DNA of 64,000 nucleotides, from contig CAZTCT010000001.1 of NCBI GenBank assembly GCA_964612415.1, positions 71,955 to 135,954 of the forward strand, in the 5' to 3' direction. This DNA comes from an uncultured Candidatus Saccharibacteria bacterium. Lineage in GTDB: Bacteria > Patescibacteriota > Minisyncoccia > Phycocordibacterales > CAYRGE01. Position numbers and translations under genes: made by a program. The notes beneath the pieces were generated by a model. That model searched no databases. It was not told the origin of the DNA and saw only the letters and a list, made by a program, of their open reading frames with translations. This document shows positions 3,352-21,551 of the stretch, one piece after another. How positions within the stretch are numbered: the stretch's first letter is position 1; each line of letters begins with the position of its first letter.

Positions 3352-4461
3352 CTATGTACTTAATGGAGCAATAAGATAAAGAAAGGATGTGTCCCCAACA
3401 CCCTTTATAACAAGGGGTTTACCTTGCCCAGAAAAACCAAGGGTAACACTATCTTGTGGAATAACACCCAAACAATCAATAATGTGTTTTTGATTAAACC
3501 CTATTTCAATCGGTTCCCCCTCTAAAACAGCGTCTAGGATCGTTTCATTTCTCCCCACATCAGGATTTTCTGAGATTAAAGATACTTGCTTTTGTTTTGT
3601 TTGCGCCAAAAATAGCACTTTGTGAAATTTATCAGAAAATGCGTTGGCGATTTTAAGTGCGTTTAAAACATCGTTTTTTAGTGTTGTTACCTCTGTTGTG
3701 TTGGTTTTTGGGATTATTTGACGGTAGTCTGGGAAATTTCCACTTACAAGTCTTGATGAGATATGTGTGTTTTTAAAAATAAAAGATATTTGATTCTCGT
3801 TGTGGTAAACAAGAACATCTCCAGTCTCTTCGTCTGTTTCGCAAACTTTTATTATTTCCATTGCTGTTTTTAGGGGGAGAATTAAGGATGAAAACTCTTG
3901 GTTATTTTTTGTGAGAATTTTCTTCTCAGCAAGACGTACAGAATCTGTTGCCACAAACACCACTGTTTTGCCTTCAGGGTACATATAAACACTAGATATT
4001 TCTGGCTTTATATTTGATATTGCTGCACTAAAAACAACACTTTTAAGTCCGTTTAAAAGATTGTTTTTTTCTATTAAAATCTCGTTTTCTTTTGGTTTTT
4101 GAGGAAGGGTTGGAAAATCATCAACGGGGAAACATTTTATTACCGCTTTATTCCCCCCTCCTGTAAAAAGGATGTTTCCTTTTTCTTCCTCTATTGAGAC
4201 AATTTTTTGATCTTGGATTGTGGTGAGGATATTACTTAATACTTGTGGGAGAACTACAAAAGACCCATTTTTTTGTGTTTTTGTTTGAATTACTGACTCA
4301 AAACCTATTTCAAGATTTGTTGCTCTAATAGTAACTTTATTATTTTCAATTAAAAACAAAACTCCTTGTAGTGTTGGTAGTGTTGAATTTTTACCTCCCA
4401 AAAACCTCTCTGCTAGAGATAAAACTTTTTTTAATTTTTCTGAAAAGAATTCTATTTTCAT
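3352..4461 (-). CDS. dnaN: DNA polymerase III beta sliding clamp
   Basis: 369 aa, MKIEFFSEKLKKVLSLAERFLGGKNSTLPTLQGVLF..., three-domain length, located downstream of dnaA. Confidence 0.9.
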   Translation of the reverse strand: MKIEFFSEKLKKVLSLAERFLGGKNSTLPTLQGVLFLIENNKVTIRATNLEIGFESVIQTKTQKNGSFVVLPQVLSNILTTIQDQKIVSIEEEKGNILFTGGGNKAVIKCFPVDDFPTLPQKPKENEILIEKNNLLNGLKSVVFSAAISNIKPEISSVYMYPEGKTVVFVATDSVRLAEKKILTKNNQEFSSLILPLKTAMEIIKVCETDEETGDVLVYHNENQISFIFKNTHISSRLVSGNFPDYRQIIPKTNTTEVTTLKNDVLNALKIANAFSDKFHKVLFLAQTKQKQVSLISENPDVGRNETILDAVLEGEPIEIGFNQKHIIDCLGVIPQDSVTLGFSGQGKPLVIKGVGDTSFLYLIAPLST

Positions 4462-4709
4462 ATTAATAAATGTTTATATATTTCTATATATAAAATATTT
4501 ATTATTACTATTATATGTGTTAATAAGTTGAAAACTTAAAAAAACCTTTATTTTACTGATTAAAAAACTATTTTTAAAAAGAAGAAGTTGTGAATAATGT
4601 GTGAAATTAAATAAAAGATTGTGGATAAATATCTCTAAAAATATATCAGCAGTTTTTATAAACAAATTTTTCCACAACTTTTTCATAATAAAACACAGCT
4701 TATTAACAT
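4462..4709. other. putative oriC: AT-rich dnaA-dnaN spacer carrying a DnaA-box cluster
   Basis: The 248-bp spacer is very AT-rich. It holds one perfect DnaA box TGTGGATAA (4620..4628), TGTGAATAA (4589..4597, 1 mismatch) and TTTTCCACA (4668..4676, 1 mismatch on the opposite strand), with long A/T tracts typical of a DNA unwinding element (DUE). Confidence 0.6.
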
Positions 4710-6071
4710 TTAAAACATAGATTTAATCTTCTCGATTTCATGCGATAGACCAATGTCTTTTTTAATATCATTTTTTATCTTCTCACAAGAGTGTATTACT
4801 GTTGTGTGATCTCTTCCACCAAGTTTTTGTCCGATGGTAGGAAAAGAAACATTAAACTCCTCACGGAGAAGATACATAGCTATTTGACGGGGCTTTACCA
4901 CCTCCTTTCTTCGAGTTTTTTGGTAAATAGAATCCTCTTCAATATTGTAAAAATTTGCCACCATACGAACAATATCTTTAACAGACACGTTTTTCTGAGG
5001 CTGGACACTGTTCTTAATAAGCGATTTTACTTCAGGAATAGAAAGATCACGGTTTTTAAGTTGGGTTTGGCACATAACCACATTTAAAACACCCTCCAAT
5101 TCTCGTATGCTCCCCTCTACAGATGAAGCCAAAAAATCAACAATCTCGTCAGAAAGTATAAAGCCATTGGTCTGTGTTTTTGCTTTCAAGATAGAGAAAC
5201 GAGACTCGTAATCAGGTTGCGATATGTCAACGATCATTCCTGCGCCAAAACGAGAACGCAGACGGTCTTCTAGTGTGGGGATATAACTAGGGTGCCTATC
5301 AGAAGAAAATATTATTTGGCGGTTATTGTCGTAAAGTGTGTTAAATAAATGAAAAAGCTCTTCTTGAAACTTCTGTTTGTTTGCTAGAAATTGAATGTCA
5401 TCCATAATAAGGACGTCATACTTTCTGTATTTTTCTTTAAACTGGTTTACTTTCTGCGCCTGGAGTGAGTTGATGTAATCAACAGAGAATTTTTCAGACG
5501 TAATGTAGTAAACCTTTTTACCAGGGTATAAAGTCTTTATTTGATTTCCTACCGCCTGGATGAGGTGTGTTTTTCCTAAACCAGTACCACCGTATACAAA
5601 AAGAGGGTTGTATACTACCCCGGGCTTTTTAAGAATTGCTTGCGCAGCGGCATGAGCAAGTTCGTTGAAAGGCCCAATAATAAAAGAATCAAATGTATAT
5701 CGAGGGTTCAGATTATCCTCTTTGTTGATATAAAGGTCGTTTAAAGGGAGCTCGTTAAACTGCTGTATTGCCACACTCCTTCTTTCCTGCTCATGTCCTG
5801 ATGAGCCCGTGTGGTTTTCTTTGCAAACAATATATTCAACCCCCCTTATATACTCAGCTGATTCTCGGAGAGAACGTAAGATCACTTTGTGGTATTTATT
5901 CACCAACCACTCTTTCACAAACTCGTTAGGGACTCCAACATACACACACCCACTCTCTTGTTTAACAATATGTGTGTTTTTAAACCATGTACTGAAATTT
6001 GCTTTAGAAACCTGAGGCTCAATACCCGTTAGAACTGTTCCCCAAAGCTTTTCATTATTCACAAGAGACAT
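4710..6071 (-). CDS. dnaA: chromosomal replication initiator DnaA
   Basis: 453 aa, Walker A GGTGLGKTHL, AAA+ box VLIMDDIQFL, C-terminal DNA-binding helix-turn-helix (KLGGRDHTTVIHSCEKI). Confidence 0.95.
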   Translation of the reverse strand: MSLVNNEKLWGTVLTGIEPQVSKANFSTWFKNTHIVKQESGCVYVGVPNEFVKEWLVNKYHKVILRSLRESAEYIRGVEYIVCKENHTGSSGHEQERRSVAIQQFNELPLNDLYINKEDNLNPRYTFDSFIIGPFNELAHAAAQAILKKPGVVYNPLFVYGGTGLGKTHLIQAVGNQIKTLYPGKKVYYITSEKFSVDYINSLQAQKVNQFKEKYRKYDVLIMDDIQFLANKQKFQEELFHLFNTLYDNNRQIIFSSDRHPSYIPTLEDRLRSRFGAGMIVDISQPDYESRFSILKAKTQTNGFILSDEIVDFLASSVEGSIRELEGVLNVVMCQTQLKNRDLSIPEVKSLIKNSVQPQKNVSVKDIVRMVANFYNIEEDSIYQKTRRKEVVKPRQIAMYLLREEFNVSFPTIGQKLGGRDHTTVIHSCEKIKNDIKKDIGLSHEIEKIKSMF

Positions 6072-9082: not shown

Positions 9083-9844
9083 CTATGGAGTTACTCGTAA
9101 AGCGCAACCGGTTATAACTTTCTTTGAGGCGTCCTTTGTGTATGTGGCATATGTTGCAGCGCAATTAGCAGGGTCCTCGTGTGAGCAATATGGCAGCACA
9201 TTCTCTGGGGATGTTATTGTCGAATAAGTGAAGCAGTAATCTTTTGATGCAGTATTAGGATGGAAAAAGCTCTCTGGGTGGCATCCAGCAGACAAAGGAC
9301 CACTGGGGAGTTTTTGCCCGCACTCATTGGGACCACCAAAACAAAGAACTGGAGAGCCGCTCGATGCCTGGTAGCAGTAACGTTCTTTGCCGGGGACGTC
9401 CCCGTACTGATTTTGGCCGCTTGCGTTAAGTCCCCCAGGGAGACTGAGCCCCACTGAACCACTCCCCAACTTGCCACCAGCGTCTCCAAACCCCACTAGG
9501 TCTGGGTTGATTGCACTGAGAATGACCCAGGCGCCCAAAGCAAGAATAAGGCCGAACAGCGCGTTCCTGATGCGTTCTTTTGCTGCTCCACGAAGAGACT
9601 CGTTTGCCCCAGAGGCAATGTATTGAAGTCCTGCGACGACAAGCATGACCACAGCGCCAATAGAAGCAATTCCAAGCACAAGAGAGAATATGATACCAAA
9701 GTAGTCAGCGAGGGTCGTTACTTGAGTCGTTCCAAAAATGGGCGCAAGAAGCGTATAAGCAAAGGCACTTTCTGGAAGCAACAATAAGAGTGGTATCCCC
9801 CCCCAACTCAGTACTTTTCCTAAATACTTCCTTCCTTTTTGCAT
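9083..9844 (-). CDS. VirB2/TrbC-like T4SS pilin (CPR-type) with cysteine-rich C-terminal extension
   Basis: It has a signal peptide and then two hydrophobic helices, DYFGIIFSLVLGIASIGAVVMLVVAGLQYIASGANESLRGAAKERIRNALFGLILALGAWVILSAI. This is the pattern of TrbC/VirB2-type pilins. The last ~120 aa contain about 10 Cys. Confidence 0.6.
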   Translation of the reverse strand: MQKGRKYLGKVLSWGGIPLLLLLPESAFAYTLLAPIFGTTQVTTLADYFGIIFSLVLGIASIGAVVMLVVAGLQYIASGANESLRGAAKERIRNALFGLILALGAWVILSAINPDLVGFGDAGGKLGSGSVGLSLPGGLNASGQNQYGDVPGKERYCYQASSGSPVLCFGGPNECGQKLPSGPLSAGCHPESFFHPNTASKDYCFTYSTITSPENVLPYCSHEDPANCAATYATYTKDASKKVITGCALRVTP

Positions 9845-9850
9845 ATATAT

Positions 9851-10993
9851 TTAGAATCCACCAAAAAGTCCTCCTGGGAGCTGAATTTTAAGGCTTGCGG
9901 CAGCAGTCTGCACATTTCTTGAGAGGTTTCCAAAAAGCGCTTGGATATTTCCTGACTCACCTATTGTGATGGTGGTTGATGTAGCGGACGGCAATTGTTT
10001 GCCGTCCATGGACCATTTGAAAGAAAGGTTGTCCATGGAGAAGAAATAAGGCTCCGCCTTCAAAGTAACCTCTGAATCGGGAGCATCAAATGTGCCTGAC
10101 AGCGCCCTTCCATATTCAATTCCAGAAAGCGGACTTGTTTGGTAAAAAAGAACCTTTGGTTGTGTTGGGGGGATGGTAATGGTTCCTTCGGCAACAAGGA
10201 CATTGTCTGTAGAGTAGGCACGAACCTTTATTGGTGCCCCTAAATACAAAGCGGGGCCATCTGCGTAATACACATATTTCCCTAAGCCAGAAGCCTTTTG
10301 GTCAGCGGTATTTCCATGTGACCAGGTATAACCAAGGTTTTCAGGAGCGATCTCCTTTCCATTGCTTGCGGTTAAGTGCGGGATTGCAACAACCCGAATA
10401 ATACTTCCAGGGGAAGCGAGGGCCTTGCCTTTATAAAAGGGAGGAGTATATGTGAGAGCCTCCCACGCAAGTTCTACTGCGGAGGGGTACACTGTCAGTG
10501 TTTTCTCGTATGTTTCACCTGTGGGGGTAGTTACCACAGCTCTAATGGCCGAAATCTCTCCAGAACCACCTGTTTTAAAAGATAGTTCGCGGAGTCCAGG
10601 ACCACGATCAATCAATGTGCCATTTATGTACCAAGAGATATTTGAAATCCCAAGATCGGTACTATAGGAAAAAAGAGAAACCGTTGCATCATTGTTGGGG
10701 CCCGGGTATTCAGGTCTTACATCGATAGTAATTGAATTTTCTGCCGACTGGCGAAGGATTTCTTTCACATTCGGCATTTTTACCGAATTGAGAGCATCAA
10801 GCATTTGCTGTTCTCTTGTGGGGGTATTGTTGAGTATCTCCTGAGGATCTGGGTTTGGGGAGAGAACGGCATCTAGGAAATCAGCATGAGCGACATGAGC
10901 AAGTCCGAAGGAAAAAATAATAACCCAAATAAACCTAAACTTCTTGGCTTGTAAATATGCCATAGTTACTCTCATTATAAAGAAAACCCCCAC
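9851..10993 (-). CDS. secreted hypothetical protein (signal peptide, beta-rich)
   Basis: 380 aa, N-terminal hydrophobic signal FIWVIIFSFGLAHVAHA, no recognisable catalytic motif. Confidence 0.65.
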   Translation of the reverse strand: MGVFFIMRVTMAYLQAKKFRFIWVIIFSFGLAHVAHADFLDAVLSPNPDPQEILNNTPTREQQMLDALNSVKMPNVKEILRQSAENSITIDVRPEYPGPNNDATVSLFSYSTDLGISNISWYINGTLIDRGPGLRELSFKTGGSGEISAIRAVVTTPTGETYEKTLTVYPSAVELAWEALTYTPPFYKGKALASPGSIIRVVAIPHLTASNGKEIAPENLGYTWSHGNTADQKASGLGKYVYYADGPALYLGAPIKVRAYSTDNVLVAEGTITIPPTQPKVLFYQTSPLSGIEYGRALSGTFDAPDSEVTLKAEPYFFSMDNLSFKWSMDGKQLPSATSTTITIGESGNIQALFGNLSRNVQTAAASLKIQLPGGLFGGF

Positions 10994-11016: not shown

Positions 11017-11433
11017 TTATGCACCTGCGAGTGCGGGACTTGTTCCTTGCTTAACACTGCCCTGCCGCTTCTTTTGGGCCTCTCGGACTTCTTTGTTGTG
11101 GAAATGACGTATTACAAAAAGCATAATGGTTTCCATTGGGAGGATGCCCAAAAGAGGAACGAGCTCTATAAATATTGAAAGAGCGACAGTCGCGACGTTC
11201 CGCGTACTGGGGCGTACCCCACCCATAAATAGGTACATTGCTATTATTGAGCCAAAAACAAGATCAGTCCCCCAAGAAAACGCCTCCACAAGAAATCCTG
11301 CCGGGCTAAGCACCGTACTAAAAGTAAGAAGGGCTCCCACGATTTGGCTGAATACATCTGATATATCCAAAACCATCGCCACCAAGACAATAATCCAGAA
11401 GCCAGCGCCTAATTTTTTTTGGTCAGGGGACAT
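11017..11433 (-). CDS. small integral membrane protein, hypothetical
   Basis: 138 aa, 3-4 predicted TM helices, basic C-terminal tail. Confidence 0.55.
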   Translation of the reverse strand: MSPDQKKLGAGFWIIVLVAMVLDISDVFSQIVGALLTFSTVLSPAGFLVEAFSWGTDLVFGSIIAMYLFMGGVRPSTRNVATVALSIFIELVPLLGILPMETIMLFVIRHFHNKEVREAQKKRQGSVKQGTSPALAGA

Positions 11434-11436
11434 ATT

Positions 11437-13263
11437 TTATACTGGACCAGATCCTTCACTTGCAGCCAATTCATCCTTGGCCTTTTTGATCGCCAAGAGT
11501 TGCGACGGGTCTGAGGTGATGATCTGGTCCTCTGTGTACGAGGCGATAACCTTGATTGCTACACGCTTGAGGCCGGCAAAAAAGATGCCCTCCCCCACAT
11601 CAGATTCAAGAAGAAGATATTTTTCTTCCTCTGTAAGGTTGAAAGTTTTTTGCACAAGATCAATGGTCGTCGGCGATTGCTTAAGGAGCATTTGCATTGA
11701 TGAGTTTGTCAAAATAGGTACTCCATAAGGGGAGCGCAAAAAGTCGCCCACATCTTGTGTGATGGTTGAAAGGCCAAGGTAGTATTTTCTTCCTCGCTTC
11801 GCGAGACTGAGGAGGAAAGAGGCAGTGTCTTCAGACTTCATCATCCACCATGCCTCATCTACCACAAGAAGGCGTTTGCGAAGATTTTTTCTAATCGCGC
11901 TCCATATATGGTGTGTGATGATGTACATTGCTACGGGCTTCAACTCATCTTCCATGTCACGGATAGAGAAAACAACGAATTTTTTAGAAATATCAACATT
12001 AGAAGGCTGATTCATAAAGCCTGCCCATGTTCCTTTTGTGTATTTAGAAAGCTTCTGAACCAATGAATCAGCCCCTTCCATTCCAGATAAGACAAGCTCA
12101 AAGTCTGACAAAAGAGGAGCTTCTACTGATGAAAAGTCTGAATCTGCGGTGATATCTTTGAGGGCATATGTTTCTGTAATAGCACGGTCAATAATCGCGT
12201 CTTCTTCTGCAGAGAGTCCGCCAAGCATGATACGAAAGAGACCAACAAGATTAATGATCTGTGATCGTAGTACGTCTGCGGGAGACTCGTCTTCGCGAGG
12301 AGCGGGGAGATCAAATGGGTTGATGTGATTCTCTGAGGTGAGGGAAATATTGAAATATCTTCCTCCAGTGGCTTCCGCGAGATACTCATATTCCCGCTCT
12401 GGGTCAATAACAATAACATCAATATCGAACATGAGACTTCGCAAGATCTCAAGCTTTGTGTTGTATGACTTACCAGAACCAGATCGTGCAAACGTTACCG
12501 AATTGTAGTTTGGGAGAGAGAAGCGGTCAAAAAGGACCAGTGAAGCGTTGTGTCGGTTGATGCCATAGAGAATTCCTTTGTCGGAGGTGAGGTCAAAAGA
12601 CACAAACGGGAAGATGCTTGAAAGAGGAGATGTGTTCAACTTGTTATGTATAGCGAGGTCGTCATTGCAAGCTGGGAGCATACTGCGAAGACCTTCTTCC
12701 TGCTGGAAAATGGCGGGGCGGACATACACAAGGCGAGATTCTAGTAGAGATTGAATCTCGGACTCAAGCTTCTTGAGGTCTTCTTCAGAGTCTCCGTATA
12801 TTGAAATATAAAGACCTACATCAAAGATCTTTTCTTGTGCCTGCATAAGACTATCGCGCAAGTCTTCTAGGTCTTGGTACGCGGTTTCAAGCATTGGGTC
12901 ACGTACGAATCCTTTCCTCTCGCGCTCAGTGATCTGGCTGCTGACCTCGGCTACCTTTTTTTGAAATTTCTTCAATATCTGCTCTGTGTCTATCGGGTGA
13001 ACAAAGATTGATACATCAAATACTTTGTCTAGATTGATAATGGGAGCAAACCAACTTGCGGTAAGAACGCGAGGGTATGAGGTGACAAAAAATGTTCGCA
13101 TTATCTTCTCCCCCATCTGGATATCTTTTGGGGATACCTGAAGAGCGGATGGTGCGATAACATCTTCAAGCTCAATGTCTGCCTCGCCGTAAAGATCTTC
13201 TGGAAGTATCGGCATGACACTTTTTTCGTCGGCCCGCTTTTGCAATTTGTCAGATAAAGCCAT
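11437..13263 (-). CDS. VirB4/TraE-family T4SS ATPase, C-terminal ATPase portion
   Basis: 608 aa, Walker A ARSGSGKSYNTK, Walker B LLVVDEAWWMM. Its N-terminal region (IAPSALQVSPKDIQMGEKIMRTFFVTSYPRVLTASWFAPIINLD) matches the middle of Gram-positive TraE/VirB4 proteins. Confidence 0.8.
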   Translation of the reverse strand: MALSDKLQKRADEKSVMPILPEDLYGEADIELEDVIAPSALQVSPKDIQMGEKIMRTFFVTSYPRVLTASWFAPIINLDKVFDVSIFVHPIDTEQILKKFQKKVAEVSSQITERERKGFVRDPMLETAYQDLEDLRDSLMQAQEKIFDVGLYISIYGDSEEDLKKLESEIQSLLESRLVYVRPAIFQQEEGLRSMLPACNDDLAIHNKLNTSPLSSIFPFVSFDLTSDKGILYGINRHNASLVLFDRFSLPNYNSVTFARSGSGKSYNTKLEILRSLMFDIDVIVIDPEREYEYLAEATGGRYFNISLTSENHINPFDLPAPREDESPADVLRSQIINLVGLFRIMLGGLSAEEDAIIDRAITETYALKDITADSDFSSVEAPLLSDFELVLSGMEGADSLVQKLSKYTKGTWAGFMNQPSNVDISKKFVVFSIRDMEDELKPVAMYIITHHIWSAIRKNLRKRLLVVDEAWWMMKSEDTASFLLSLAKRGRKYYLGLSTITQDVGDFLRSPYGVPILTNSSMQMLLKQSPTTIDLVQKTFNLTEEEKYLLLESDVGEGIFFAGLKRVAIKVIASYTEDQIITSDPSQLLAIKKAKDELAASEGSGPV

Positions 13264-13265
13264 AA

Positions 13266-13976
13266 TTAGTCGAATTTTTTCACAGGGTTAACAACTTCAG
13301 GAGGATTAAGGAATTTATAGAAAAGTTCAACCACCTCCTCTGTTCCAAGAGGGACCACGCGAATGCCTGTGCGGGCAAGACCTTGCTTCACCACATTCGC
13401 TCTTTGCTCAAGCTGTGAGCGGGCTTCTTCAAAGGCCTGTACATCAAGAGAGGATTTCTTTGAGCCCTCTCCCCCTTGCTTCTGTACAGGGAGTTTTTTT
13501 GAGGGGGTGCCCTTTATCCCACCAAGGAGTTGATCAAAGATACCGCTTGCATTTGCGAGAGCTTTCTTCTGTTGAGAGAAGACGGACTTTGGTGTGTAGG
13601 GCACAACAATAAAGAACATTTTTGTCATAATATTTGTTTGCTCTGTCACGCTCCGAACGAAATCAATATATTCTTGGATCTGAATACGCATGAGATCATT
13701 CATCTCTGTTTTGAATCTGGATTCTAGTGTTGCCAAATAGGGCCTAATATCCAATCTTCTGGATTGAACGAGGATTTGAAGTGAGTAATCAAGCGAATTC
13801 AAAAAGTTTTGGAACTGTGCAAGAATGGCCCCTTGTTCCTGTTCCGATTTGAGTGCAAAGTTGAGCGACGAAGCCATCAAAACAAGGCGCATAGACCCGT
13901 CTTTCATAATGAGAACCCCGTCACGAACCTCTTTTACAGGGACGAATTTTTGGGATGATTGTGATTTAACCGGCAT
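13266..13976 (-). CDS. VirB4/TraE N-terminal domain encoded as a separate ORF
   Basis: 236 aa. KEVRDGVLIMKDGSMRLVLMASSLNFALKSEQEQ...MFFIVVPYT and ...GLARTGIRVVPLGTEEVVELFYKFLNP match the N-terminal domain of TraE/VirB4. The stop TAA lies 2 nt before the ATG of the ATPase ORF, which is in another frame. Confidence 0.7.
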   Translation of the reverse strand: MPVKSQSSQKFVPVKEVRDGVLIMKDGSMRLVLMASSLNFALKSEQEQGAILAQFQNFLNSLDYSLQILVQSRRLDIRPYLATLESRFKTEMNDLMRIQIQEYIDFVRSVTEQTNIMTKMFFIVVPYTPKSVFSQQKKALANASGIFDQLLGGIKGTPSKKLPVQKQGGEGSKKSSLDVQAFEEARSQLEQRANVVKQGLARTGIRVVPLGTEEVVELFYKFLNPPEVVNPVKKFD

Positions 13977-14415
13977 GATGTTTTGATTCCTCTGGTGGGT
14001 TATCCGGGTCTATTACTTCGATGTTTGTGGAAAGGCCAGTCAATTTATTTTCCGATACAACCGGAACATTAAATGAAGGGGGTGTTTCTGGGCGAGAGAT
14101 GGTAAGGTCTCTGCCCGTCTCAATTTTCTTCTTCTCCTTCTTCCATGTATAAAGGCGGGAGTGAGAGTAGAATCTAAAAGCTGACTCAAGAATCCCCGCG
14201 AATGACTTTCCAAATCTTTGCTTGGGGTAGAAGACAAGGGCCCACGTAAGTACCCCGATCGGAATAATAAGCAGTACTGCAATAAAGTGCGGCAGGATTC
14301 TCCATAAGAGGAAAATGAGTCCCCCACCACCAGCGAGGAACACAAACTGCACAACAGAAAAAGATCCGAATATTTTATCCTCTACATCTATGTACTGAGG
14401 AACACGGAAGTCCAT
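13966..14415 (-). CDS. VirB3/PrgI-like small membrane protein
   Basis: 149 aa. DVEDKIFGSFSVVQFVFLAGGGGLIFLLW plus a second TM. It is a small two-TM protein immediately upstream of VirB4, as in Gram-positive T4SS operons. Confidence 0.5.
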   Translation of the reverse strand: MDFRVPQYIDVEDKIFGSFSVVQFVFLAGGGGLIFLLWRILPHFIAVLLIIPIGVLTWALVFYPKQRFGKSFAGILESAFRFYSHSRLYTWKKEKKKIETGRDLTISRPETPPSFNVPVVSENKLTGLSTNIEVIDPDNPPEESKHHAG

Positions 14416-14475: not shown

Positions 14476-15282
14476 TTATTCAAGCGGCTCCCGGTAAGGG
14501 TCTGTTCGCGGAGATGAAGAGGAACCCTTTTCTTGTTGCTGAGACCCTCCGACAGTGCGCTGGAGTTTCTCCTCGAATGCATTTTTGGGGAAACGAATAT
14601 TCTCCGGTGCTGGCTCACTGTCAGACGGCCCAGTCTTTCCGGAAGAGATAATTTGCGGACGAGGAGAGCCTGGAAGATTTTCAGGTGGTCGTGCGGGAGC
14701 CTTGATTGTTGGTTGAGGTATCTCGGGGCGCTCCATTTTTACCGGTGGGGTCATCATTGGAACTGGTGGAAGTCCGGATTTTGCGCGTGCAAGATCTTTT
14801 TGGAAGGTCTTTGAAGGACCCGAAAGAGAAGCTTGAGACGCTGATGGAGCAGCCTGGGGTGGTTGAGGTACTTTTGGTGGAGTAGGAACGGAAGGTTTTG
14901 GCTGCTGTGTTGGCGCAACAGGGGGCTTCCCTTGAGATGCTGCTGGGGCAGACGTCTTTATCGCACTGAGCAAAGGTCCTGACACGTGGTACATCTCTTT
15001 AATAGATGACTCTACACCAGAAACAATATCGCTTATTATTGCACGTGCTAAAGAGGTAGCTTTTTCCGCAGAAATACCAGACGTGGTCAGCGCATCGAGA
15101 AACTTCCCTGGAGGTAGATCTCCAATGAGCAATTTTGTAGTTGCATCCTCAACTTCCAAGGCCTGCAGGTCTGTTATGTGCATCTCATCAGCAAGGGTAA
15201 AGATTGAAACAACGAGATCGTCATTTTTAAGGAGAAGCTTGATATCCGGAGCTAGCCCTTTAATTTTTGCTTTTATGTCCAT
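14476..15282 (-). CDS. hypothetical proline-rich protein
   Basis: 268 aa, folded N-terminal ~110 aa followed by a long P/Q/S-rich low-complexity region, no TM. Confidence 0.55.
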   Translation of the reverse strand: MDIKAKIKGLAPDIKLLLKNDDLVVSIFTLADEMHITDLQALEVEDATTKLLIGDLPPGKFLDALTTSGISAEKATSLARAIISDIVSGVESSIKEMYHVSGPLLSAIKTSAPAASQGKPPVAPTQQPKPSVPTPPKVPQPPQAAPSASQASLSGPSKTFQKDLARAKSGLPPVPMMTPPVKMERPEIPQPTIKAPARPPENLPGSPRPQIISSGKTGPSDSEPAPENIRFPKNAFEEKLQRTVGGSQQQEKGSSSSPRTDPYREPLE

Positions 15283-15284
15283 AT

Positions 15285-17192
15285 TTATACATCCATTGTA
15301 GCGGCAAAGTCAGCAGGGTTTGAAGACTTCGACTTGTCCTCTCCACCGCCAGATTTTTCAGAAGACTTGTCTCCACCACCCTCTTCTTCCTCAATGGCCT
15401 CCTTAACCGTATCGCGGATGGATTTTTCTTTCTTTGCAAGCTTTTGAGCAGCAAGGCGCTTAGCCATCCATCGGCTACGAGGCCAAGTTAGCCCTTGTCC
15501 GTTCTCGCTAAAGAGCTTGTTTCTTGTCCCTGGGATTACAGGAGCCTCCTTCAAGCGGTCAGCAAACACGTCAGTTCCTGTGCGGTACTGATCTTCCATA
15601 ATTCCCCCTTTGCCCTTTTTCTGTACCACGTAACCATCTTTATCCAGAAGGCGAGCCTCTTGCCCCGCAGCGATTGTCTTTGTGGTGATAACTTCTTTGC
15701 CATCTTTGTCATACGTGCGGTATTTATACTCCATCTCCTTGGTGAGAATTTCGTTTCGCGCATTTCCAAATTTATCCTTCCCGAGGCGCTTGCCCTGCTC
15801 TTCATACATCTTCGCATCTTGCTCCCTAGCCTTTACAAAGCCGCCCTGACCACGAGTTTTGCCGTATCCGCCCACACCCTTAACGCCACGGAAATCATAC
15901 GAAGCACTCGACAACCCTTGTGCTTTGCGCTCCGCCCATGCACCAAAGTTTGAACGTTCCCCAAAGCCTTTCATCCAATTGCTGTTTGCAGCTGCGGCAA
16001 AGCCTCGTCCAGCTGTATTTCGCAAAATCATACCTCCAGCCGTTCCGTAAGCGGCGCCCATGCCGATCTTTGCCCACTTCGTAGAGCTTGAGGCAAGGTT
16101 GCCCGCGATGCTTTTTGCCGCAACGATGGCTCCAATAAGCAGGCCAAGGATGAGAATATATGAAAAGATCGGCGCGAGATTGGTGGCTGTTGCCTGCCCA
16201 GTTATAGCTGTCGAAATAGCGCTTCCAATTGAACCACCCAATCCTCCGAGTACGGCACCAATACTGTTGTTGCGCGCGATTTCTGCAACGAGGTATATGA
16301 AGAACATGAATACCGGTGCAAAGAAAGCGTGACTCATCAGAGAACCCCACCATCTTGAGGCATGCCCACGGAGGCCAGGAAGTGCCGCCGCAACGAAAGC
16401 AAGGGGGGATAGAACCATCAGGAATATAATCGCAATAGTTCGCAGAATGAACATGATCGCTCCAGAAAGGAAGACAAATGTTGCCACAAGCATGGCAACG
16501 GCGCCAAAAATGTAGGCAATCGCGCGGTTTGTATTTGATAGGCCAGTGACATCAAAGGTGTTTGCTGACCCTTGTGCAGATGATGTTGTTTGAAGTTGGA
16601 ATGCTTCCATGAAGACCCCGGAGAGGCTATTTACAGTAGCGCCGTTTATCTGTGCTTGCGAGGCTGTGTTCCAGAAGTACACAGTGAATACATTGGCGAC
16701 ATCAACGATGACCTTTGTGAAGAAGAGACTGAAGTTCACGAAGAGCGCTGCAATGATAATCGTTGCGATATAGCGTTTATAGTTACCAGCGTTCAATATC
16801 GTCATAATCGCGATATAAATAAGGCCAAAGAGGAAGAACATGTTTGCGAAATCGCGCACCACATCCCAGACAGTATTGATGGCAGTAATGCTATTGTAGG
16901 TGCTCGAGCTGATGGAAGTTTGTATTGAGATATCAAGCAAATATCCAGCAACGCTCAAAATCCATGCGGTAATGTGAAATACAAACCCAGCGATCCATTC
17001 AAGAATATTCCCAAAAACAAAATCAGCTCCTCCTGCAAGTGTCCCCCAAAAGGCATCCCAAGAGGAAGATCCTTCTGCGGCAAAAGCTTGGATTGGCGCA
17101 GCAAAAAACAGTATGGAGGCAAAAAGAAATCCGAGCAGTCGCTTTGCCTTGGTGAGCGCCCTTGTACTTTTTTGATAAAAAGAAAACATCAT
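15285..17192 (-). CDS. VirB6/TrbL-like polytopic membrane protein with charged C-terminal tail
   Basis: 635 aa, signal peptide plus at least 7 TM helices in the first 400 aa, and a K/E/G-rich cytoplasmic tail. Adjacent to VirB4/VirB3-like genes. Confidence 0.55.
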   Translation of the reverse strand: MMFSFYQKSTRALTKAKRLLGFLFASILFFAAPIQAFAAEGSSSWDAFWGTLAGGADFVFGNILEWIAGFVFHITAWILSVAGYLLDISIQTSISSSTYNSITAINTVWDVVRDFANMFFLFGLIYIAIMTILNAGNYKRYIATIIIAALFVNFSLFFTKVIVDVANVFTVYFWNTASQAQINGATVNSLSGVFMEAFQLQTTSSAQGSANTFDVTGLSNTNRAIAYIFGAVAMLVATFVFLSGAIMFILRTIAIIFLMVLSPLAFVAAALPGLRGHASRWWGSLMSHAFFAPVFMFFIYLVAEIARNNSIGAVLGGLGGSIGSAISTAITGQATATNLAPIFSYILILGLLIGAIVAAKSIAGNLASSSTKWAKIGMGAAYGTAGGMILRNTAGRGFAAAANSNWMKGFGERSNFGAWAERKAQGLSSASYDFRGVKGVGGYGKTRGQGGFVKAREQDAKMYEEQGKRLGKDKFGNARNEILTKEMEYKYRTYDKDGKEVITTKTIAAGQEARLLDKDGYVVQKKGKGGIMEDQYRTGTDVFADRLKEAPVIPGTRNKLFSENGQGLTWPRSRWMAKRLAAQKLAKKEKSIRDTVKEAIEEEEGGGDKSSEKSGGGEDKSKSSNPADFAATMDV

Positions 17193-17195
17193 AAG

Positions 17196-18119
17196 CTAAA
17201 AGAGGTCGTTTATTGAATCAACCACAATGGTAGAAACAAAAGCACCAAGCATTTCGCCAAGCTCGTCAATGTTGGTGATGTTTGTAAGCTTAGAGCCAAT
17301 AGATGCATTTAGCTGGTAGTTGATAACGGCTCCAGGGGTTTTGATATTGCCATTGGCGTCTTTTGTGGACTGCGCTCCATTGCCATTATCAGCATCTTGG
17401 GCAGCATTTCCAATGGCGGCTGCCTGACTTGCGGTATTGGCACGCTGCTGGGTGGAGATTTTCTGAATAGGATTGTCCCCTTGAATCATGGCAACATTCC
17501 ATGCATCCCACCCTCCTACTGCAAATTGTCCGGACAAAAATGCTCCTGGCGCATTGCCGGTCACACCATTAAGCTTACAAGTCTGTGCCTTTGCTGCGGC
17601 GTCTCGATCCGCCTTGCTTGAATTTTCAATACCAATCTTGAGGCTTGTCTTGAAATCCCCAAAAGCACTTGGGTCTCCGGCGTAAAAATCACAAATATCA
17701 AGGTCTAAAATATCCTGTCCGTATGCAAGAGCTTCCTTCTTCGCCTCATCAAGATAGTGTTGTGCGAAGTTGCGAATATATGCTGGGCGGTCGCTGAATT
17801 GTCCCTCGGCAACATTTATCATGTCATCCACCGCCCTATTAAGGAGGTTTGTTTTAAGTGCCCATGCTGCAGGGTCAAGAACGTACTCTTTAATATAGCC
17901 TGCTGTTGAGTTCGCAGAAATAATAGCTTGAATCGCCTGGTCTACCTGCGCGAGGGCTCGCTCAATGAGCTGTGTTACGAGGTTTGAACAGTTGGCGCAA
18001 AACACAGCCCCTCCAGCTTGAGCCTTCTCAGGGAAAACCCCCATCATCACGATAACTGCAAAAACAAGAACAATTCCCTTGCGGAGAAAAGCGAGGATAT
18101 TTTTATTAAGGTGCAGCAT
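17196..18119 (-). CDS. secreted hypothetical protein of the T4SS-like cluster
   Basis: 307 aa, signal peptide IVLVFAVIVMMGVFPEKAQA, Ala/Asn/Gly-rich C-terminus. Confidence 0.6.
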   Translation of the reverse strand: MLHLNKNILAFLRKGIVLVFAVIVMMGVFPEKAQAGGAVFCANCSNLVTQLIERALAQVDQAIQAIISANSTAGYIKEYVLDPAAWALKTNLLNRAVDDMINVAEGQFSDRPAYIRNFAQHYLDEAKKEALAYGQDILDLDICDFYAGDPSAFGDFKTSLKIGIENSSKADRDAAAKAQTCKLNGVTGNAPGAFLSGQFAVGGWDAWNVAMIQGDNPIQKISTQQRANTASQAAAIGNAAQDADNGNGAQSTKDANGNIKTPGAVINYQLNASIGSKLTNITNIDELGEMLGAFVSTIVVDSINDLF

Positions 18120-19123: not shown

Positions 19124-20776
19124 TCACCCCCTCTTTAACCGCCTGCGGGAAGTAAATTGGGAGAGTACAACAAAAAGCGACAATAAAAGTACCCAGTCGC
19201 CGTACGTTTCATATATGGACATCTTTGAAATGAGCGCTACTTCTGGGTATATCGCCGCGCTTGTCTTCCCCTCCTGTCCGGAATAAAGTATTTTACCTGT
19301 ATTTGATATGACAAAAGACGAGCTATAGTTTGTCGCTCCCACCAAAAAACGATTTGACTCAGCTGCGCGTATTTGTGCGTGGTGGCGCTCAGTTATCTTT
19401 ATAAAATAAATTCCATGGAGGGATGCATGAGATGCTGAGTTAAAGAGCATTGTTGCGCCATCTTTCACAAGGCTTCTAAAGATGACTGGAGAAACTATTT
19501 CTGAACAAAAAGATCCGCCGATTTTTGTACCGTCAGATAGTGTTCCGATCTCGCGCCTTTCTCCTACGCGGTATCCTCGCCCATTCTCATAAGCAGTGAC
19601 CCATTTTGATCCTCCTGACATGCGTGTCAAAAATGAAACCCACGAAGGTATGTATTCTCCAAAAGGCATCAAAAGACTTTTTTCATAGACCGCGCGCGAG
19701 CTCCCTGAGCCATCAAGATAGGTTAATGTTGATTTTGCGATCCCTCCAAGAAGGGGTGTGCGGCCTGATGTTACGAGAGTAGTGCTTGCATTTTGTGTCC
19801 CTAAAATTTCTCCAACGCGTCCTCGCTCTCCAACCATGTTAAGCAAAAGCCCAAAACGATCATCTTCGGGCAAAATGACAAGGCCAGCGGGCGTATCATT
19901 CACTGTTCCTTTGTTTATTGTCAAAAGTAGTGCTGTGAGTGTTTCAAACTGACTAAGGGCGTCATCAAGATTTTCTGTTGCCTTGGCGTCAATGTGTGTT
20001 TGTGTAGTGGCGACGGAGATCGTTTTTTCCGGAACAGAGTTTTTGTAATGGGCGTTGATTAAAGTTCCAAGGAGTACAAAAAGAAAGAATACTCCCAAAA
20101 AAGAGAGCAATGTTCTTTTTAAAGAAGACACACCACCTGCAATAATCCTATATATACCAAGACCCAAAAAGATCGCGATAAAACTCAAAAGATATATACC
20201 ACCTACCGCTGCGAATGAGCGGAGAGTTTCACTTTCAGCAAGCGGATAGCCAATTGAGCCAAGGGTCCAGTGTGGACCTATCGGCGTGTCTCCTCCCCAC
20301 CAGATTAATGATATTGAGAGTGCGCTGACCCATTCTGAGATAACAATCAAAGATGGGAACAAGAAATAATCTTTCCACGTATGAGAGCGGAGCTTGTAAA
20401 AGATAATGCTTGCAATACCGATAATCCCGCCATAGACAAGAGATTCAAATACCCACAAAAGTCCTACAAGTGGATACGCAAGTAATGGGTTGGAAATACC
20501 CATCCAGTCAAGTGGCAACGCTCCCCATCCCCAGGCAAATGCGCCACCCATAACTACTGAGCCAAACGCAACACCTCCCCAAAAAGCATTCCTGCGCGAG
20601 CGTACCTTCGCAAGGAAATGAAAAAAAGGAATAATGCCAAAGAACACACACCACCAAAATATGTAAGTGTTCATCCCTATCGCAACAAGACCACCTCCAA
20701 TTAGTGGCAATGCGAGCGTGGGGTTTTCCCAAGAAAAAATCTCACGTATTTTTTCTGAGATATTATTGAGATTCAT
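19124..20776 (-). CDS. lnt: apolipoprotein N-acyltransferase-like (multi-TM + carbon-nitrogen hydrolase domain)
   Basis: Six to eight TM helices followed by a CN-hydrolase domain with the catalytic Cys in GGSFCSEI and LPE/K upstream. Start placed at the internal ATG (MNLNNISEK); the track ORF extends into rsmA. Confidence 0.7.
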   Translation of the reverse strand: MNLNNISEKIREIFSWENPTLALPLIGGGLVAIGMNTYIFWWCVFFGIIPFFHFLAKVRSRRNAFWGGVAFGSVVMGGAFAWGWGALPLDWMGISNPLLAYPLVGLLWVFESLVYGGIIGIASIIFYKLRSHTWKDYFLFPSLIVISEWVSALSISLIWWGGDTPIGPHWTLGSIGYPLAESETLRSFAAVGGIYLLSFIAIFLGLGIYRIIAGGVSSLKRTLLSFLGVFFLFVLLGTLINAHYKNSVPEKTISVATTQTHIDAKATENLDDALSQFETLTALLLTINKGTVNDTPAGLVILPEDDRFGLLLNMVGERGRVGEILGTQNASTTLVTSGRTPLLGGIAKSTLTYLDGSGSSRAVYEKSLLMPFGEYIPSWVSFLTRMSGGSKWVTAYENGRGYRVGERREIGTLSDGTKIGGSFCSEIVSPVIFRSLVKDGATMLFNSASHASLHGIYFIKITERHHAQIRAAESNRFLVGATNYSSSFVISNTGKILYSGQEGKTSAAIYPEVALISKMSIYETYGDWVLLLSLFVVLSQFTSRRRLKRG

Positions 20777-21551
20777 GGAGTTTTTTAAGGAGACATTTCC
20801 AGTCTGAAAGCGTAATATCTTCCGCGCGCACACTTTCTGGAATATTGCATTCACGCAATGTATCCGTCGACACGGCATAATCTTTTTTCAAATTGCCCAA
20901 CAAAGTTTTTCGTTTATGCGAAAACCCTTTTTTCATAAGAGAGAAAAATTCTTCATGTTCTTTTGCAGAAGAAAAGCCTGATCTTATTCCTTCAATCGCG
21001 ATAATCGCAGAATCTATTTTTGGTTGTGGGGAGAAAAATCGCGCTGGAACTTTCTTTATATACCGCGGAGTGCCATACGCCTTAACGGATATTGATAGAA
21101 TGCTCTCTTTCCCATCTCTTGCAACGATACGGTCCGCCACTTCTTTCTGGACCATGAGAACGAGTGCGCGAGGAGGAGTTTCATTCTCAAGAAAGTGTCG
21201 GAGAAGTGCCCCAGTTATGTAATAAGGAATATTTGCGATTACCACATATTGCAATGCTGAAAGGCCAAGACTTTTTGGATTTATATGGAGCACATCACCA
21301 TGTACCACCTGAAATTTACCCTGAGCAATTTCACCAGAGAACTGCTCTTCAAGTTCTGGAATAAGGCGATCATCTTTTTCGATTGCTATAGTCTGCGCAG
21401 GAAGTGCGAGGAGCTCTTTTGTGAGCATCCCCTTTCCTGGGCCGACCTCAAGGATGCGATCACTTTTTGAAACAGGTACCGCCGTCGCGATTTCCTTTGC
21501 GATCGCGTGCGATTTTAAGAAATTTTGGCCAAGAGATTTTTTTGCGCGCAT
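20763..21551 (-). CDS. rsmA: 16S rRNA (adenine1518/1519-N6)-dimethyltransferase
   Basis: 262 aa, SLGQNFLKSHAIAKEI, SAM motif ILEVGPGKGMLT, NIPY motif. Confidence 0.9.
   Translation of the reverse strand: MRAKKSLGQNFLKSHAIAKEIATAVPVSKSDRILEVGPGKGMLTKELLALPAQTIAIEKDDRLIPELEEQFSGEIAQGKFQVVHGDVLHINPKSLGLSALQYVVIANIPYYITGALLRHFLENETPPRALVLMVQKEVADRIVARDGKESILSISVKAYGTPRYIKKVPARFFSPQPKIDSAIIAIEGIRSGFSSAKEHEEFFSLMKKGFSHKRKTLLGNLKKDYAVSTDTLRECNIPESVRAEDITLSDWKCLLKKLHESQ

Follow-up and report, generated by a model that had tools for sequence, protein, structure and literature searches.

A TrsD-like gene precedes a short VirB4-type ATPase gene in a chromosomal type IV secretion cluster of Patescibacteria, a conserved two-gene arrangement

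In a 64,000-nucleotide stretch of DNA from an uncultured Candidatus Saccharibacteria bacterium (hereafter, the window), the coding region of a VirB4-like protein is divided between two adjacent open reading frames on the minus strand, ORF1 (13266..13976) and ORF2 (11437..13263). We found that these are very probably two separate functional genes of a chromosomal type IV secretion system (T4SS) of Patescibacteria, of the Paceibacteria type, giving rise to two polypeptides. The pair is an already known, ordinary gene pair, to which this locus adds one more instance. The two-gene state is old, conserved and common to monoderm conjugation systems, and does not reflect a local event.

ORF1 encodes a TrsD-like protein of 236 aa that matches the N-terminal ~200 residues of a fused VirB4, and ORF2 encodes a short VirB4-type ATPase of 608 aa without the TrsD-equivalent N-terminal module. 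At the junction (13261..13268, minus strand), the TAA stop codon of ORF1 (13268-13266) is followed by the spacer tt (13265-13264) and the ATG start codon of ORF2 (13263-13261), and the frame of ORF2 relative to ORF1 is -1 (= +2). A run of six A residues (A6 run, GTG AAA AAA TTC; 13275..13280, minus strand) lies 6 nt, namely the codons TTC GAC, before the ORF1 stop; formally it is a -1 slip site, but it is unconserved and is therefore not considered functional. An earlier sequence-only reading had described two ORFs in different frames separated by 2 nt, and the coordinates, the TAA, the tt spacer and the ATG were all confirmed; the peptides that it quoted were all found in the translations. 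Its sum of 844 aa, the normal VirB4 size, is likewise borne out by the lengths of the two products (236 + 608), and the pair is colinear with full-length VirB4.

The genes around the pair belong to a T4SS cluster. A gene for a PrgI-family (VirB3-like) small membrane protein (13966..14415, minus strand, 149 aa; Pfam PF12666 PrgI, E 9.2e-08, 33 bits against a cut-off of 27 bits) shares 11 nt with the 5' end of ORF1, and a PrgI gene is also present 5' of the ORF1 homolog in the related loci L085-L087. Located 3 nt 3' of ORF2 is a conserved operon partner encoding a hydrophobic protein of 138 aa (11017..11433, minus strand), for which no family match was found in Pfam; a gene of 136-138 aa occupies the same place, 3' of the ORF2 homolog, in L085-L087 and in a JGI contig. 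The same gene cluster contains a T4SS pilin-like (VirB2-like) protein of 253 aa (9083..9844, minus strand; Pfam PF18895 T4SS_pilin, E 4.1e-10, 40 bits against a cut-off of 26.6 bits). The presence of dnaA (4710-6071, minus strand; Pfam Bac_DnaA, 1.8e-68) and dnaN (3352-4461, minus strand; DNA_pol3_beta domains) at 3352..6071 places the T4SS cluster in an origin-proximal setting. In a survey by Quiñonero-Coronel et al. 2025 (Microb Genom, PMC12102498), T4SS genes were reported close to dnaA, dnaN and ksgA in Paceibacteria/Patescibacteria, and the neighbours of the cluster in the window match the dnaA-proximal setting described there.

ORF2 matched the NCBIfam model NF045971 (CD1110-family VirB4-like ATPase) with 369.9 bits against a cut-off of 325 (E 2.6e-110), over positions 184-734 of 752. 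A Walker A motif, ARSGSGKS, was located at ORF2 residues 259-266 (window 12489-12466) and a Walker B motif, LLVVDE, at residues 465-470 (window 11871-11854). ORF2 also matched the VirB4 C-terminal domain in PDB 4ag5 (E 4e-39) and residues 446-734 of TrwK. By family model, Walker motifs and motor-domain homology, ORF2 is thus a predicted VirB4-type T4SS ATPase. The complete VirB4 N-terminal domain is absent from ORF2, since its match begins only at position 184/752 of the CD1110 model, 292/894 of the Mbov_0397 model and 269/792 of the TIGR00929 model. In addition, no second copy of the ORF1-type module was found when ORF2 was searched with the ORF1 profile.

The part of VirB4 that precedes the ORF2 match corresponds to ORF1. 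The two ORFs cover positions 4-119 (ORF1) and 184-734 (ORF2) of the 752 positions of the CD1110 model, 100-236 and 292-893 of the Mbov_0397 model, and 4-137 and 269-725 of the TIGR00929 model. On a fused 858-aa VirB4 of Myxococcus, ORF1 residues 12-225 correspond to residues 16-205 and ORF2 residues 125-529 to residues 333-750; the hhalign comparison of ORF1 with residues 16-209 of this protein gave 96.7% and E 4.6e-10. A search of the PDB chains with the ORF1 profile returned no sequence match even at E 10, and the connection to the TrwK/VirB4 chains there emerged only from a fold search. With the AF2 model of ORF1 (pLDDT 78.5), the best 14 Foldseek matches in the PDB were all TrwK/VirB4 chains, with modest scores (E 4e-3 to 0.15, TM 0.3-0.5). 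Profile, hhalign and fold matches therefore agree with the earlier assignment of 13266..13976 to the N-terminal part of VirB4/TraE, and the profile coordinates and the motifs located in ORF2 agree with the claim that 11437..13263 continues VirB4 and carries its Walker A and B motifs. Judged from these comparisons, it is right to regard ORF1 as the N-terminal part of VirB4 and ORF2 as the remainder with the ATPase motifs.

The relationship of ORF1 to TrsD is more distant. ORF1 fell under the cut-off of the NCBIfam TrsD/TraD model NF041427, scoring 31.6 bits against 200 (E 1.3e-07, positions 19-144 of 201), and this score places it outside the curated subfamily, as a remote homolog. Its similarity to the prototype TrsD of pSK41 is weak (BLASTP E 0.25; hhalign probability 2.9%, E 0.015 over 45 columns). 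Precomputed annotation gives Pfam PF26593 'TraC-like' for ORF1 and all its relatives; our Pfam profile search of ORF1 did not return PF26593 and gave only a sub-threshold match to TraC_F_IV. We use TrsD-like in a broad sense, that of Pfam PF26593 'TraC-like' and of the CONJScan TrsD as it appears in PMC12102498, and ORF1 agrees with this broad definition as a standalone protein of the ~200-240 aa class whose gene is flanked by a VirB3-like gene and one for a short VirB4. The link between ORF1 and TrsD is drawn from the NCBIfam match below cut-off, from synteny and the break point, and from the HMM survey published in that paper.

Conservation of the arrangement was analysed in 80 loci from GTDB species-representative genomes of Patescibacteria. 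The homologs of ORF1 and ORF2 were separate, adjacent genes in all 80. The ORF1 homologs end in TAA (60), TAG (12) or TGA (8), and every ORF2 homolog has its own start codon, ATG in 78 loci and TTG in two. The relative frames 0, +1 and +2 occur in 17, 31 and 32 loci. The median spacer is 5 nt, the extremes being -4 (an overlap of 4 nt) and 481 nt. In four loci, a complete and unrelated 23S_rRNA_IVP gene lies between the two genes. Nearly all ORF2 homologs are 599-640 aa long; every one of the 120 best among at least 8000 ORF1 relatives in the database is a standalone protein of 202-237 aa. No fused form was found among the 80 related species or among these best 120 of the at least 8000 database relatives. 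Across species, the identity is 53-58% for ORF1 and 72-78% for ORF2. Junctions in close relatives read TAGttATG (gap of 2) and TAAcactATG (gap of 4). Very few loci have a Shine-Dalgarno-like motif ahead of either gene (1/80 and 3/79), and in this clade such motifs are therefore uninformative on the independent initiation of ORF2. The sequence-only reading had proposed alignment with orthologous loci, which shows the split form in 80/80 and the fused form in none; it had also reasoned that relatives with the same two genes and intact start and stop signals would indicate a normal split gene, and this is the arrangement seen in every one of the 80 loci.

These data bear on three explanations in which the junction would be a local peculiarity. 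The window sequence G AAA AAA T (13281-13274) might direct a programmed -1 frameshift, by which some ribosomes would make a fused VirB4 of 840 aa besides the two products. Between the A6 run and the ATG, the -1 frame is indeed free of stop codons (..K K I R L I M A..), and L087, the closest relative, has an A7 run together with a 2-nt spacer. However, only 2/80 orthologous loci have an A run of six or more near the ORF1 end, and in L088 (76% aa identity) the run is broken (AAGAAAA) and the spacer is 4 nt; the slip heptamer is also non-canonical, its first base being G. The frame relation varies among orthologs, with 17 loci in which both genes share one frame with a stop between them, and another gene separates the pair in four loci. 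The variation of frames (17/31/32), the rarity of the A run and the presence of an own ORF2 start in 80/80 loci led us to reject the programmed frameshift, which we regard as highly improbable.

Adjacent ORFs in different frames whose summed length is that of VirB4 are also what a frameshift mutation typically leaves, as would be expected of a pseudogene or of a recent, lineage-specific break of a once-fused virB4. This explanation is scarcely credible and was rejected, because the same two intact genes are carried by all 80 related species; moreover, neither these nor the best 120 database relatives include the fused form from which such a break would have started, both halves are strongly conserved, and the break point is that of TrsD/TrsE of pSK41 and of other monoderm plasmids. 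The probability that 13264-13265 holds an indel error from assembly or sequencing is similarly close to nil. MAG assemblies may carry indels and an A run is nearby, but the two-gene state is universal in relatives, and L085 and L086, two independent SRA-run assemblies, carry exactly the same junction; the contig from SRR12009705 is 99.9% identical over 4.9 kb and that from SRR15237813 100% identical over 4.7 kb, and the error was rejected on the basis of this identical junction. Among the four explanations offered by the sequence-only reading, genuine gene fission is thus the closest, though not as a local event, while pseudogene, programmed frameshift and assembly or indel error did not hold.

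With two separate functional genes as the preferred reading, the genes for VirB3-like PrgI, the TrsD-like protein and VirB4 would be transcribed in that order as a single compact operon, and the 2-nt spacer may permit termination-reinitiation coupling. ORF1 would supply the TrsD-like protein, and ORF2 the rest of the N-terminal half together with the RecA-like motor. We infer that the two polypeptides associate physically and reassemble non-covalently into a VirB4-like unit, in which the TrsD-like module would contact VirB3, to which ORF1 would dock, and the membrane complex, and ORF2 would form the ATPase ring. Alternatively, ORF1 could be an independent accessory protein that only resembles the VirB4 N-terminus and does not complement ORF2 structurally, acting at its own stoichiometry, for example as a regulator or adaptor. 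Consistent with such independence, the module is separable from VirB4: on the Embleya plasmid NZ_CP108778, PrgI (residues 14-101) is fused to a TrsD-like module (residues 135-249, hhalign 97.6%), and another gene lies between this fusion and VirB4. In Gracilibacteria, too, TrsD was described as not adjacent to virB4 (PMC12102498). We nevertheless consider an accessory role unlikely, given that ORF1 and ORF2 are strictly colinear with fused VirB4 without overlap or gap, that ORF2 is without the ORF1 module and that the two genes are adjacent in 80/80 loci. The PrgI-TrsD fusion of Embleya itself points to a functional link of the TrsD-like module to VirB3.

The colinearity with fused VirB4, the break point shared with pSK41 and the PrgI-TrsD fusion together suggest a concrete and testable role for TrsD, that of a VirB4 N-terminal module which has become detached and docks on VirB3. 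According to the survey, TrsD outnumbers every other T4SS component in Patescibacteria (2,272 homologs, 1,664 of them adjoining virB4); it shows remote homology to the VirB4 N-terminus, is essential in Ca. Southlakia epibionticum and is without an assigned function (PMC12102498). The exact colinearity of TrsD and short VirB4 with full-length VirB4 is not spelled out in the available portion of that text, and the proposed role is a small interpretive step beyond the description published there. The TrsD-like module is free in Patescibacteria, in pSK41 and in plasmids of Bacillota and Actinomycetota; in Embleya it is joined to PrgI, and in Proteobacteria and the Tn916 class it is part of VirB4. 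One might speculate, as a tentative and rather doubtful scenario, that the split VirB3 / TrsD-like / VirB4 core is the ancestral monoderm-type T4SS and that full-length VirB4 arose later by fusion of the TrsD-like (VirB3-docking) part with the ATPase core, the module being a separable subunit whose boundaries moved repeatedly. If so, a separable module could let Patescibacteria regulate the assembly or stoichiometry of their essential T4SS. For annotation, a gene of ~220 aa followed by a ~600-aa VirB4 in Patescibacteria or in monoderm T4SS of the pGO1/pSK41 type should not be taken for a frameshifted pseudogene, and the two should not be merged or "corrected".

Among known systems, the pair in the window most directly resembles the TrsD and VirB4 pair of Patescibacteria as presented in PMC12102498: in both, PrgI/VirB3 is followed by a standalone TrsD-like gene and then directly by virB4, the cluster includes VirB2-like pilin genes, and the locus is chromosomal, near dnaA/dnaN/ksgA. 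No substantive difference was found. Weak matches were also seen to haloarchaeal plasmid genes of 425 aa and 879 aa (A2 profile, E 0.022).

The trsD-trsE genes of the staphylococcal conjugative plasmids pSK41/pGO1 (traD-traE; MPF_FATA, pGO1 subclass) share the series of a small VirB3-like protein, a TrsD of ~227 aa and a VirB4-type ATPase of ~670 aa; in S. aureus pSK41 the order is TrsC-like, trsD (227 aa) and TrsE (672 aa). ORF2 residues 34-572 align with TrsE residues 36-617 (E 3e-35), which pairs ORF2 residue 34 with TrsE residue 36; the two systems thus share their break point. The same order and break point are found in plasmids of Pontibacillus, C. perfringens and Miltoncostaea. In contrast to this likeness in layout, the sequences are very divergent, the match of ORF1 to pSK41 TrsD by itself is not significant, and ORF1 scores below the NCBIfam cut-off. 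Furthermore, the system of pSK41 is a conjugative one, carried on a plasmid and equipped with a relaxase and a T4CP, whereas the Patescibacteria system is chromosomal and, according to PMC12102498, usually without a relaxase. Canonical fused VirB4 proteins, such as TrwK of R388, the CD1110-family of Tn916-like elements and the 858-aa protein of Myxococcus pYRE, agree with the pair in domain content and order, and in the folds of the N-terminal module and of the ATPase core; they are one polypeptide, whereas in the window a gene of its own encodes the first ~200 residues. Finally, VirB3-VirB4 fusions, which are cited in PMC12102498, and the PrgI-TrsD fusion of Embleya have the same module order, VirB3, TrsD-like and VirB4 core; their gene boundaries lie elsewhere, and the window has three separate genes.

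ORF1 (13976..13266, minus strand, 236 aa) ended with a TAA stop codon at 13268-13266 and was followed, after a 2-nt spacer (tt), by ORF2 (608 aa, minus strand), which started with ATG at 13263, ended at 11437 and was in frame -1 with respect to ORF1. The two ORFs had been described correctly by a sequence-only reading, which saw a VirB4/TraE gene split in two and offered gene fission, a pseudogene, a programmed frameshift or an assembly/indel error as the cause. The junction was the same to the base in contigs from two other sequencing runs, assembled independently. In the nearest relatives it read TAGttATG (87% aa identity) and TAAcactATG (76% aa identity, with a different frame relation). 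The ortholog comparison proposed in that reading was carried out on 80 loci taken from species-representative GTDB genomes, among them Yonath-, Zambryski-, Kaiser-, Adler-, Nomura- and Taylorbacteria and 'Paceibacterota', and every junction was dissected. Two separate genes with intact signals were present in 80/80 loci: the ORF1 homolog always ended with a stop codon (TAA 60, TAG 12, TGA 8), and the ORF2 homolog always began with a start codon of its own at the conserved N-terminus (ATG 78, TTG 2). The spacer ranged from -4 nt (an ATGA overlap) to 481 nt (median 5 nt), and the second gene lay in frame 0, +1 or +2 relative to the first in 17, 31 and 32 loci, respectively. In four loci, each from a different Patescibacteria species, an intact, unrelated 23S_rRNA_IVP/four-helix-bundle gene (PF05635, E 6e-33 to 4e-40) was inserted precisely between the two genes, trsD-like and virB4, on the same strand (L030:4314-4756, L050:5639-6060, L054:5630-6094 and L065:1497-1978). 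Complete ORF2 homologs were nearly all 599-640 aa, and among the database relatives of ORF1 (at least 8000), the best 120 were without exception standalone Patescibacteria proteins, 202-237 aa in length. Three orthologous VirB4s were outliers in length: one of 1264 aa (L033:5652-9446), possibly fused to a downstream gene, one of 709 aa (L016:5657-7786), and one of 292 aa (L011:3012-3890), possibly truncated or disrupted.

The survey and the identical independent junctions therefore exclude three of the four proposed causes. An assembly error was rejected by the independent assemblies together with the universal two-gene state, and a pseudogene by the stop and start that each locus retains. As for programmed frameshifting, a G AAA AAA T run lies ahead of the stop, separated from it by 6 nt (two codons), and ribosomes slipping by -1 on it would continue directly into ORF2. 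A comparable A-run was found in just 2 of the 80 loci, however, and orthologs do not share one frame relation. Such a slip is thus highly improbable in the window, and a conserved programmed frameshift was rejected. ORF1 and ORF2 are two adjacent genes that are conserved together.

The domain reading of the earlier analysis, in which ORF1 is the N-terminal part of VirB4 and ORF2 the remainder, held up. Profile matches identify ORF2 as a VirB4-type ATPase: it scored 369.9 bits against NCBIfam NF045971 (cut-off 325 bits), matched the Pfam domains P-loop_TraG, AAA_10 and DUF87 and the solved VirB4 C-terminal domain 4ag5 (E 4e-39), and contained, as claimed, Walker A (ARSGSGKS) and Walker B (LLVVDE) motifs. 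By profile and predicted fold, ORF1 is the detached VirB4 N-terminal module named TrsD in the literature. A profile of 119 ORF1 relatives aligned with residues 16-209 of a fused Myxococcus VirB4 at 96.7% probability, and the NCBIfam TrsD/TraD model matched at E 1.3e-7, but well under its curated cut-off. The AF2 model of ORF1 (mean pLDDT 78.5) had a well-predicted alpha/beta core, with a disordered loop (140-173) and C-terminal tail. Its best 14 PDB fold matches were in every case TrwK/VirB4 chains from the R388 T4SS (probability 0.87-1.0, with modest E-values of 4e-3 to 0.15), and all lower-ranked matches had probabilities of at most 0.20. ORF1 matched VirB4 models at their N-terminal ends only (CD1110 4-119, Mbov_0397 100-236, TIGR00929 4-137), and the ORF2 matches began at positions 184, 292 and 269, respectively. 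In the fused 858-aa Myxococcus plasmid protein, ORF1 covered residues 16-205 and ORF2 residues 333-750, placing the break by extrapolation at about residue 210. Because these coordinates run in sequence, the alignments indicate that ORF1 and ORF2 form one colinear VirB4 equivalent, with no part absent and none duplicated. ORF1 residues 228-236, beside the break, were disordered in the model; by inspection, ORF2 has an acidic start and the fused Myxococcus protein a proline-rich stretch at the equivalent place, as would be expected for a module boundary.

A PrgI/VirB3-like gene overlapped ORF1 by 11 nt on its upstream side, and a T4SS pilin-like gene (9083-9844) lay downstream of ORF2. Five conserved genes of the cluster had no Pfam match, two downstream of ORF2, encoding a 138-aa hydrophobic protein (11017-11433) and a 380-aa protein (9851-10993), and three others encoding proteins of 268 aa (14476-15282), 635 aa (15285-17192, directly upstream) and 307 aa (17196-18119). 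The 635-aa protein could be a candidate VirB6-like channel component. Spacings were 2-23 nt or overlaps, save one 60-nt gap, and therefore the cluster is one tightly packed operon. It lies ~3-5 kb from dnaA (4710-6071) and dnaN (3352-4461) and near ksgA (20763-21551), thus adjoining the presumed replication origin, in agreement with a report for Paceibacteria.

Since stop and start signals are present, two polypeptides are presumably made, and the spacer of just 2 nt suggests that ORF2 translation may be coupled to ORF1 termination. SD-like motifs were near-absent before both genes across the survey loci. In the R388 inner-membrane complex, VirB3 binds the VirB4 N-terminal domain. Given this contact and the PrgI-TrsD fusion described below, the TrsD-like protein may bind PrgI/VirB3 and dock, without a covalent link, on the N-terminal region of ORF2, which would rebuild a VirB4-like protomer as the T4SS ATPase.

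S. aureus pSK41 has the same gene order, with a small TrsC-like gene, trsD (227 aa) and VirB4-type TrsE (672 aa); in the alignment, TrsE residue 36 is the counterpart of ORF2 residue 34, and therefore the break point is common to both. The same split was found in plasmids of Pontibacillus (274 and 621 aa, overlapping by 11 nt), C. perfringens (pJFP838A; 312 and 641 aa, preceded by PrgI) and Miltoncostaea (337 and 661 aa, likewise preceded by PrgI). In the Embleya sp. plasmid NZ_CP108778 (L090:3114-4163), one 349-aa protein combined PrgI/VirB3 (14-101) with a TrsD-like module (135-249; hhalign 97.6%), and next to it came a 165-aa gene (assigned to the XF1762 family, with a weak sub-threshold Pfam Mom match) and then a 643-aa VirB4. 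By domain assignment, this fusion links VirB3 to TrsD in the Rosetta-stone manner. The comparison of pSK41, the other monoderm plasmids and Embleya indicates that the order VirB3, TrsD-like, VirB4 core is constant and that gene boundaries shift. In haloarchaeal plasmids, ORF1 had matches that were full-length but weak (tblastn E 3e-4; E 0.022 with the ORF1-family profile); in a Natronomonas marina plasmid (L084:3455-7592) the match lay within a 425-aa protein followed by an 879-aa protein, a pair that may be an archaeal form of this two-gene arrangement, although the similarity is too weak for a firm assignment.

In their survey of Patescibacteria T4SS, Quiñonero-Coronel et al. 2025 (PMC12102498) describe PrgI and VirB2-like partners and a site near dnaA, dnaN and ksgA, place TrsD, outside Patescibacteria, only in the pGO1 subclass of MPF_FATA, and report it as essential in Ca. 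Southlakia epibionticum, and a 2025 FEMS review (PMC12857230) describes these systems as monoderm-type and essential. The gene pair is therefore already known from these descriptions: ORF1-ORF2 is an ordinary, conserved, published pair, and the window is a textbook instance of this TrsD-VirB4 T4SS. Only a small increment is added here, namely explicit evidence for the exact colinearity of TrsD plus short VirB4 with fused VirB4, the break point common with pSK41 and the alternative fusion of the module to PrgI. Together, these sequence comparisons point to a role for TrsD, a protein listed in the survey without an assigned function.
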